Positions 32,800 through 33,237 of a stretch of 64,000 nucleotides of DNA are shown here, one piece after another (the first letter of the stretch is position 1; the number at the start of each line of letters is the position of its first letter). The notes under the pieces were generated by a model. It did not search any database and was not told the origin of the DNA. It saw only the letters and a list, made by a program, of their open reading frames with translations. The position numbers and the translations under genes were made by a program. Origin of the DNA: Thermoanaerobaculia bacterium (GTDB lineage: Bacteria > Acidobacteriota > Thermoanaerobaculia > Gp7-AA8); the NCBI GenBank assembly GCA_036399015.1, contig DASWNW010000086.1:722-64721 (forward strand), written 5' to 3'.

Positions 32800-33237
32800 A
32801 TGCTCGAGCCCGGCCAGCAGGCACCCGACTTCGACGTACGCGATCACCAGGGGAACAACGTCCGCCTCCGCGACCTTCGCGGCAAGAAGGTCGTGCTCTG
32901 GTTCTACCCGAAGGCCGACACACCCGGTTGAACGCGGGAAGGTTCCGGGTTCCGGGACCTCATCGGCGAGTACGAGCAGAAGAACACCCGCGTCCTCGGC
33001 GTCAGCTTCGACGACGAGCAGGCCAACCGGCGCTTCGCGGAAAAGTACAACTTCCCCTTCCCGCTCCTCTGCGACACCGACCGCTCGATCGGCGTGGCGT
33101 ATGGCGCCGCCGAGTCGGGGAAGGACGAGTACGCGCGCCGCATCGCGTACGTCATCGACGAGGAAGGGAAGATCGCGCAGGCGCATGCGAAGGTGGATGC
33201 GTCGAGCTACCCGCGGGAGCAACTGAAGAGTTTGTAA
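32800..33237 (+). CDS. bcp: Bcp/PrxQ-type peroxiredoxin with in-frame TGA (32929-32931) at the peroxidatic Cys position: candidate selenocysteine-containing peroxiredoxin
   Basis: ATG 32800 with GGGGAGGGAAAG RBS; N-term MLEPGQQAPDF..KKVVLWFYPKADTPG-[TGA][40 protein letters not shown].. colinear with Bcp; frame intact to TAA at 33235; hairpin AGGUUCCGG-GUU-CCGGGACCU 9 nt after UGA. Confidence 0.7.

Follow-up and report, generated by a model that had tools for sequence, protein, structure and literature searches.

In the 64,000 nt stretch of the Thermoanaerobaculia contig DASWNW010000086.1 that was analysed (the window), positions 32800 to 33237 of the forward strand hold a gene for a Bcp/PrxQ-type peroxiredoxin in which a TGA triplet occupies the codon of the peroxidatic Cys. 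The frame comprises 43 codons, the TGA, a further 101 open codons and a TAA, and the translation around the TGA reads FYPKADTPG-[TGA]-TREGSGFRD. A short hairpin, resembling a bacterial selenocysteine insertion sequence (SECIS), lies just downstream within the coding sequence, which makes the gene a candidate for the incorporation of selenocysteine (Sec, U). The features of the locus are as follows.

32788-32799, + strand: purine run GGGGAGGGAAAG, Shine-Dalgarno-like, directly 5' of the ATG (read directly)
32800-33237, + strand: coding sequence of the predicted Bcp/PrxQ-type peroxiredoxin selenoprotein, 145 residues, with ATG at 32800, a UGA-Sec codon as codon 44 and TAA at 33235-33237
32908-32931, + strand: active-site motif P37-K-A-D-T41-P-G-U44 (PxxxTxxU), from the translation
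32929-32931, + strand: in-frame TGA, codon 44, at the peroxidatic Cys position according to the orthologue alignment
32940-32960, + strand: predicted bacterial SECIS hairpin AGGUUCCGG-GUU-CCGGGACCU, with 9 bp including one G-U (5' arm 32940-32948, apical loop GUU 32949-32951, 3' arm 32952-32960)
32944-32946, + strand: codon TCC of Ser49, at the site where C-x4-C Bcp proteins have their resolving Cys; its middle base is SECIS stem position 17
33070-33072, + strand: codon of Cys91 (PLLCD), the sole Cys of the protein, from the translation
33139-33141, + strand: codon of Arg114, the conserved peroxiredoxin Arg, which aligns with the Arg of 'ARITFVID' in Sulfolobus solfataricus Bcp1 (3DRN)

For profile searches, Cys was substituted at the TGA. 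The resulting protein matched the Pfam family AhpC-TSA (PF00578) with 126.9 bits, against a gathering threshold of 26 (E 5.4e-37), over profile positions 1-123 of 124 and residues 4-127 of the protein, a match that spans the TGA. Judged from the sequence, the AhpC/TSA fold can be regarded as certain. Of the solved structures, S. solfataricus Bcp1 (3DRN) is the best match, with E 1.4e-23 and an alignment that runs from end to end, and all 12 PDB matches at E <= 1e-15 are of the Bcp/PrxQ type. Amongst NCBIfam models, PrxQ (104 bits) and Bcp PRK09437 (103 bits) scored best, with the AhpC, Tpx and PrxU types at 54 bits or below; no NCBIfam equivalog cut-off was reached by the protein, those of the PrxQ and Bcp models included. 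The residues P37, T41, U44 (for Cys) and R114 all stand in the expected places in the translation and the 3DRN alignment; R114 is predicted to have the catalytic role that is established for this Arg in the peroxiredoxin family. At the aligned start position, 66 of 68 full-length orthologues have an ATG. The region 32800-33237 thus encodes a putative thiol peroxidase of the Bcp/PrxQ branch. An earlier, sequence-only reading of the locus had proposed a complete 145-codon Bcp/PrxQ frame from ATG 32800, a ribosome-binding site before it and a TGA in place of the peroxidatic Cys codon. These proposals are borne out by the domain match that runs across the TGA, by the Bcp structures as nearest relatives, by the purine run at 32788-32799, and by 12 orthologous loci in which the TGA aligns with TGC or TGT.

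The gene, including the TGA, is identical in ENA ERZ27253124, JGI 3300034145 and Logan SRR10954988, which are separately produced assemblies, possibly of shared samples, and which differ from the window by 0-1 mismatches over 2.6-21 kb. Because the three separately produced assemblies have identical sequence, the TGA is not an assembly error. Both strands of the window were scanned for TGA triplets flanked on each side by 50 stop-free codons with a G+C content at third codon positions of coding type. Three sites emerged. One of them is an antisense shadow frame and another the normal end of a gene; the TGA at 32929-32931 is the only credible in-frame TGA within the 64 kb. When in-frame TGA triplets with coding signal on both sides were sought in related loci, only gene junctions were found. 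A covariance model of the TGA and SECIS region picked out no further site in the window or its 10-kb extension; Cys forms also score with this model, at lower values, because it includes coding-sequence homology.

A scan of one genome per species yielded 80 orthologous loci from different GTDB species, mostly metagenome-assembled genomes (MAGs) of Thermoanaerobaculia and other Acidobacteriota, with some Nitrospinota. The sequence-only reading had named orthologues disrupted in different ways as the pattern to be expected of a decaying gene. The relatives are not variously disrupted: codon 44 is TGA in 68 of the 80 loci and TGC or TGT in the other 12. The PxxxTxxU/C motif is invariant in 81/81 sequences except for the alternation of U and C, and amongst the best 120 database matches the TGA position aligns with Cys in 107 proteins. 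One locus, L023, has the same flanking methyltransferase, HlyD and M16 genes, yet carries TGC. The 145-codon frame is kept in 57 of the TGA-bearing loci, and a second stop or frameshift after the TGA was found in none of the 68 TGA-bearing orthologues. For all pairs of the 57 same-frame loci, the ratio of nonsynonymous to synonymous divergence (dN/dS, Nei-Gojobori) has a median of 0.20 over codons 1-43 and of 0.28-0.31 over codons 45-145, at a dS of about 0.9-1.1. A frame that stays open and constrained across such synonymous divergence must be translated.

These data bear on the possibility that the locus is a pseudogene with a nonsense mutation, or that the TGA arose by mistake in sequencing or assembly, such that a 43-residue fragment or nothing at all is made. 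Such a view would sit well with the handling of the locus by gene callers, which treat it as fragments or as an antisense ORF (open reading frame), and with the fact that Sec machinery is not seen in the available sequence. Against it, 68 other species have a TGA at this codon and no later stops or frameshifts, the downstream dN/dS is about 0.3 at near-saturated dS, the hairpin is conserved at synonymous sites and the sequence is identical in three assemblies. An artefact of a shared pipeline in the orthologous TGA codons is excluded by their differing flanking sequences. A downstream frame that is both translated and constrained excludes pseudogene and error alike, and the chance that either applies is vanishingly small. 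The sequence-only reading had also argued against a decayed pseudogene, from the 101 open codons alone, and the purifying selection on those codons upholds it.

A second explanation is that UGA is read generally in this organism, either through genetic code table 4 or 25 or by SECIS-independent near-cognate read-through as Trp, Arg or Cys. In its favour, the codon is translated as Trp in 12 public protein entries: 12 of the best 120 database homologues (P0001, P0005, P0024, P0028, P0029 and others) have Trp at the Sec position. These entries are genetic-code-4 calls on short metagenome contigs and not real Trp variants. In P0001 (L086 590-1027) a TGA with the same hairpin after it underlies the 'W', and under table 11 P0001 does not translate to the window protein. 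Either Trp or Arg at the peroxidatic position would abolish activity, which does not fit a protein that evolves under purifying selection. Reassignment according to code 4 or 25 is refuted by the window itself, in which TGA ends 18 of the 27 confident ORFs; since TGA is an ordinary stop codon here, the event at codon 44 is site-specific and no reassigned code is involved. A general reading of UGA is accordingly most improbable.

The candidate SECIS hairpin begins at the ninth nucleotide past the UGA, with 8 nt between them, and is both the centroid and the minimum-energy structure of 32929-32965, with a minimum free energy (MFE) of -16.3 kcal/mol. The published model of bacterial SECIS (bSECIS) elements asks for an apical loop of 3-9 nt with a G amongst its first two nucleotides, most often preceding a G or U, an upper stem of 4-16 bp, a UGA-loop distance of 16-37 nt and an MFE of -7.5 kcal/mol or lower (PMC13188914). 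On all four counts the hairpin falls within these limits, with a loop of 3 nt starting G-U, a stem of 9 bp, a spacing of 17 nt and -16.3 kcal/mol. The nine pairs were counted over 68 distinct Sec sequences, with the 3' partner slid by 1-3 columns as a control. Standard pairs occupy 93.6% of cells, compared with 27-64% in the slid controls, and pair 17-27 occurs as C-G (44), G-C (17) and A-U (3), which gives 21 compensatory cells.

The comparison of Sec and Cys forms points the same way. Sec forms retain a mean of 8.4 of the nine pairs and fold at -12.9 kcal/mol over the 24-nt core, whereas the hairpin is absent from Cys forms (mean 4.75 of nine pairs, -2.4 kcal/mol over the same core). Entropy at third codon positions within the hairpin is 0-0.7 bits in Sec forms and 1.0-1.8 bits in the same columns of Cys forms; at the flanking third positions of Sec forms it is 1.1-1.9 bits. 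Synonymous sites are frozen only inside the hairpin and only in Sec forms. In four Terriglobia loci (L045, L049, L057 and L064) the UGA is kept and a different hairpin is found, of 6-7 bp, shifted by a few nucleotides and with a 7-nt loop starting C-G-U/G (MFE -7.1 to -9.2 kcal/mol); it lies in the region 3130-3175 of L045, L049 and L064 and 1203-1248 of L057. This suggests turnover or replacement of the SECIS under a retained Sec codon.

Several results weigh against reading the gene as a selenoprotein. Taken as a single sequence, the hairpin is not significant: at 68% G+C, a segment of 62 nt has a z-score of -0.97 and one of 37 nt a z-score of -1.86, and 13 of 200 shuffles fold equally well. 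The significance of the predicted hairpin comes from comparative data only, and within these the pair counts owe their support to one covarying pair, the others being almost invariant. RNAalifold gave no consensus structure for the 69-sequence alignment, and no Rfam family reached its gathering threshold over the window; at a permissive E-value around the gene, Rfam returned only a meaningless antisense match of 13.8 bits. With RNAalifold and Rfam blank, the structural case consists of the pair counts, the contrast between Sec and Cys forms and the frozen synonymous sites.

The remaining points against it concern the machinery for Sec. ARAGORN predicted no tRNA in the window and no tRNA-Sec in 60 related loci, and tblastn with E. 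coli SelA, SelB and SelD (from NC_000913.3) produced no true match in the window or the related loci. A SelB-like tblastn match in L046 was rejected as a CysN GTPase, adjoining CysD. Pfam searches of ten window ORFs, including every ORF of the size of SelA, SelB or SelD, identified unrelated proteins, and gene calls over a further 10 kb of contig likewise gave nothing related to Sec machinery. The sequence-only reading had remarked that no such machinery is visible in the window, and these three approaches agree with it. Of a genome of several megabases, about 74 kb were covered, and the missing sel genes are therefore an absence of evidence. In favour of the selenoprotein reading, use of Sec is documented for Acidobacteria: three selenoprotein families were known from them in 2006 (PMC1794560), and Occallatibacter riparius, also of the Acidobacteria, has three known selenoprotein genes (PMC12013277).

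Set against these points, the orthologous TGA codons, the selection on the downstream frame and the SECIS strongly support the proposal of the sequence-only reading that the gene encodes a selenoprotein, and its description of a hairpin with bacterial SECIS geometry holds in view of the published limits and of covariation in Sec forms. We consider it very probable that this is a genuine gene of SECIS-directed recoding with Sec, or at the Sec position.

The protein lacks a resolving Cys at position +5 from U44, residue 49 being Ser (TCC). In many Bcp enzymes the resolving Cys stands at +5 or in helix alpha3; neither is evident in the aligned PDB chain. The window protein is predicted to be a 1-Cys-type (1-Sec) member, a type permitted within the Bcp/PrxQ family. 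In the Thermoanaerobaculia clade, no Sec form has Cys at +5, the residue there being Ser, Thr or some other. The Cys forms of the clade, amongst them the syntenic L023, carry Cys at this place, with P0021 as the sole exception; more distant Sec forms retain U-x4-C. Codon 49 also lies in the SECIS stem. In the window, TCC (Ser49) pairs with CGG (Arg52, 32953-32955), and in the U-x4-C relatives TGC (Cys) pairs with CGC, the change at codon 49 being compensated by a synonymous one in the Arg52 codon. Since the SECIS RNA permits either Ser or Cys at this codon, the choice between them looks functional.

Sec and Cys forms are interleaved in a neighbour-joining tree, which is built on 145 residues, weakly resolved and possibly affected by paralogues. 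It may be, although we hold this tentatively and on balance rather doubt it, that the switch between Sec and Cys in Thermoanaerobaculia is coupled mechanistically to the loss or gain of the resolving Cys, with the switch made repeatedly. If true, this would be a natural experiment in which selenocysteine makes an intramolecular resolving thiol dispensable, and one codon would be under both RNA-structure and active-site constraint.

The single Cys of the window protein, Cys91, belongs to a motif PLLCD/xLLCD that 72 of the 81 sequences share, whether they are Sec or Cys forms; the remaining nine have Ser (8) or Gly (1). It is kept whatever the residue at +5, and other Bcp enzymes have Ser at this place (LLSD). 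The alpha3 resolving Cys of Xanthomonas BCP would fall near Ala80 and not Cys91, a placement made by eye that is a lead and not a test. On this placement, Cys91 is unlikely to be a resolving Cys of the alpha3 type.

A mechanism can be proposed from these features. The hairpin at 32940-32960 would act as a bacterial SECIS and recruit SelB-GTP-Sec-tRNA(Sec) to the ribosome, so that the UGA at 32929-32931 would be read as Sec and not as a stop, and the 145-residue protein would be made. We infer this SelB-dependent insertion of selenium from the evolutionary signature, from precedent and from the E. coli fdhF paradigm as given in PMC13188914. In the PxxxTxxU pocket, T41 and R114 would activate the selenolate of U44, which would then attack peroxide and be converted to the selenenic acid. 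This last step follows established peroxiredoxin chemistry. Because residue +5 is Ser and not a resolving Cys, the proposed recycling route is that of a '1-Sec' peroxidase, which would be reduced directly by an external thiol partner of the thioredoxin or glutaredoxin type.

The identity of the inserted residue could differ if the UGA were decoded by SECIS and SelB but with a tRNA(Cys) resembling tRNA-Sec (SelC* or tRNA-ReC), in which case the product would be an ordinary Cys peroxiredoxin. SECIS-linked UGA codons are recoded as Cys by such tRNAs in several anaerobic lineages (PMC5389517, PMC13582414), and the DNA of the locus alone does not tell Sec from Cys insertion. SelC* is, however, known from Firmicutes, Thermodesulfobacteria, Nitrospirae and Deltaproteobacteria, always together with a full Sec system, and is unreported in Acidobacteria, where only allo-tRNAs were found (PMC5389517). 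In addition, the Thermoanaerobaculia UGA forms are without the +5 Cys and the TGC forms, except P0021, have it, which is hard to explain if UGA means Cys. Insertion of Cys is very unlikely on these grounds.

The sequence-only reading had described the gene as missed by ORF calling, and the public record confirms this: callers split it, miss it or mistranslate it. The mechanical ORF list divides it into 32626-32931 and 33094-33237, along with ORFs in other frames and shadow ORFs. ENA calls on the window's own sequence give fragments of 59 and 47 aa, and JGI and Logan place a 151-aa antisense ORF over the peroxiredoxin gene. The wrong public calls run from 9450 to 9935 in L081 and from 9429 to 9884 in L082, equivalent to 32752-33237 and 32731-33186 of the window. 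With no NCBIfam selenoprotein model above its cut-off, annotation based on models is expected to miss the gene.

Misannotation of the gene is clear, widespread and systematic: protein databases lack this conserved antioxidant enzyme, which belongs to a major lineage of soils and sediments, or show it truncated, replaced by an antisense ORF or with Trp in its active site. Peroxide defence and selenium use are under-counted in metabolic and redox inventories of these MAGs, and decoding of Sec by many Thermoanaerobaculia is implied. With 69 Sec sequences and over 100 Cys sequences, the series is well populated and should be usable for the questions of why Sec replaces Cys and what becomes of the resolving Cys.

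The neighbourhood of the gene and the rest of the window hold the following further features.

32225-32734, - strand: TehB-like S-adenosylmethionine-dependent methyltransferase gene, divergent, 65 nt from the peroxiredoxin start
33303-37969, + strand: genes for an HlyD/MacA-type adaptor, an ABC ATPase and two MacB/FtsX permeases
38099-38492: DUF4160/DUF2442 small gene pair (14797-15190 in L081), between the MacB-type permease and M48 peptidase genes
7223-7243, 16886-16950, 32163-32243, 34544-34618 and 36636-36718: intergenic palindromes

The TehB-like protein matches Pfam TehB at E 1e-11 and is below the cut-off of the NCBIfam TehB models. TehB-type enzymes methylate tellurite and selenite. 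As a partner of the peroxiredoxin in selenium methylation this gene was considered and rejected: amongst the 69 Sec loci the two are adjacent in only 20, and they are neighbours in the Cys locus L023 as well, so that the arrangement looks like clade synteny and not a functional link. Downstream, the adaptor and ABC gene set starts 65 nt past the peroxiredoxin stop with no terminator-like site between, and an HlyD gene lies 3' of the peroxiredoxin in about 40 related loci. Co-transcription of the peroxiredoxin with the HlyD/ABC genes is possible.

The palindromes consist of tandem 7-nt units, (GCTGGTT)n, a loop and (AACCAGC)n. The sequence GCTGGTTGCTGGTT has 22 matches at up to two mismatches, where 0.22 would be expected. 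Amongst the five sites, at least three directly follow the end of an ORF or gene (32160, 34523 and an FtsX-type gene at about 36627), and the palindromes look like REP-like or terminator-like hairpins specific to the genome of the window. The pairing of DUF4160 with DUF2442 is typical of toxin-antitoxin-like modules.

Amongst known systems, the Cys-type Bcp/PrxQ enzymes, such as 3DRN and Xanthomonas campestris BCP (3GKK), share fold, length and the Pro, Thr and Arg positions with the window protein (E 1.4e-23 to 3.6e-18), but use Cys where it has Sec. PrxU of Eubacterium acidaminophilum (Sohling et al. 2001) is an experimentally characterized Sec peroxiredoxin (PMC13188914). It likewise has Sec at the peroxidatic position, but is larger and of another peroxiredoxin subfamily (the NF040737 profile has 233 positions). 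The window protein was rejected as an orthologue of PrxU, with 42.3 bits against the NF040737 cut-off of 270. The Prx-like thiol:disulfide oxidoreductase selenoproteins are also of the thioredoxin fold and PF00578, but have UxxC and not TxxU (PMC1088965); membership in this group was rejected too, as U44 is followed by T-R-E-G-S, without Cys at +3. In the SECIS elements of E. coli fdhF and fdnG the mechanism is the same as that proposed here, with a stem-loop just 3' of the UGA that binds SelB and has a G-U in its small apical loop. They have no sequence similarity to the window hairpin, and bSECIS elements of different genes are generally dissimilar (PMC13188914).

The closest counterpart is the Prx family of bacterial selenoproteins (COG1225, TxxU), which is established (PMC1088965, PMC13188914). 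Twelve members, with five inferred Cys-to-Sec events, were recorded in genomes available in 2006 (PMC1794560), and a 2026 review lists Prx as an established family with the motif PxxxTxxU (PMC13188914). The sequence-only reading had spoken of a known but rare family; known it is, whereas rarity does not hold. The window gene shares with it the Pfam family, the motif, Sec in place of the peroxidatic Cys, a SECIS just downstream inside the coding sequence and widespread Cys homologues. It differs in that the Sec forms of its clade are without the resolving Cys at +5 (U-x4-S), and soil and sediment Thermoanaerobaculia are not named in PMC1088965, PMC1794560 or PMC13188914. A literature search found no paper linking Thermoanaerobaculia with selenocysteine. 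The family has been known for about 20 years, and the gene is no new kind of system but an instance of it in a lineage for which no published report was found. Every testable defining feature of the Prx TxxU selenoprotein family is present in the window gene, which is a member of it.

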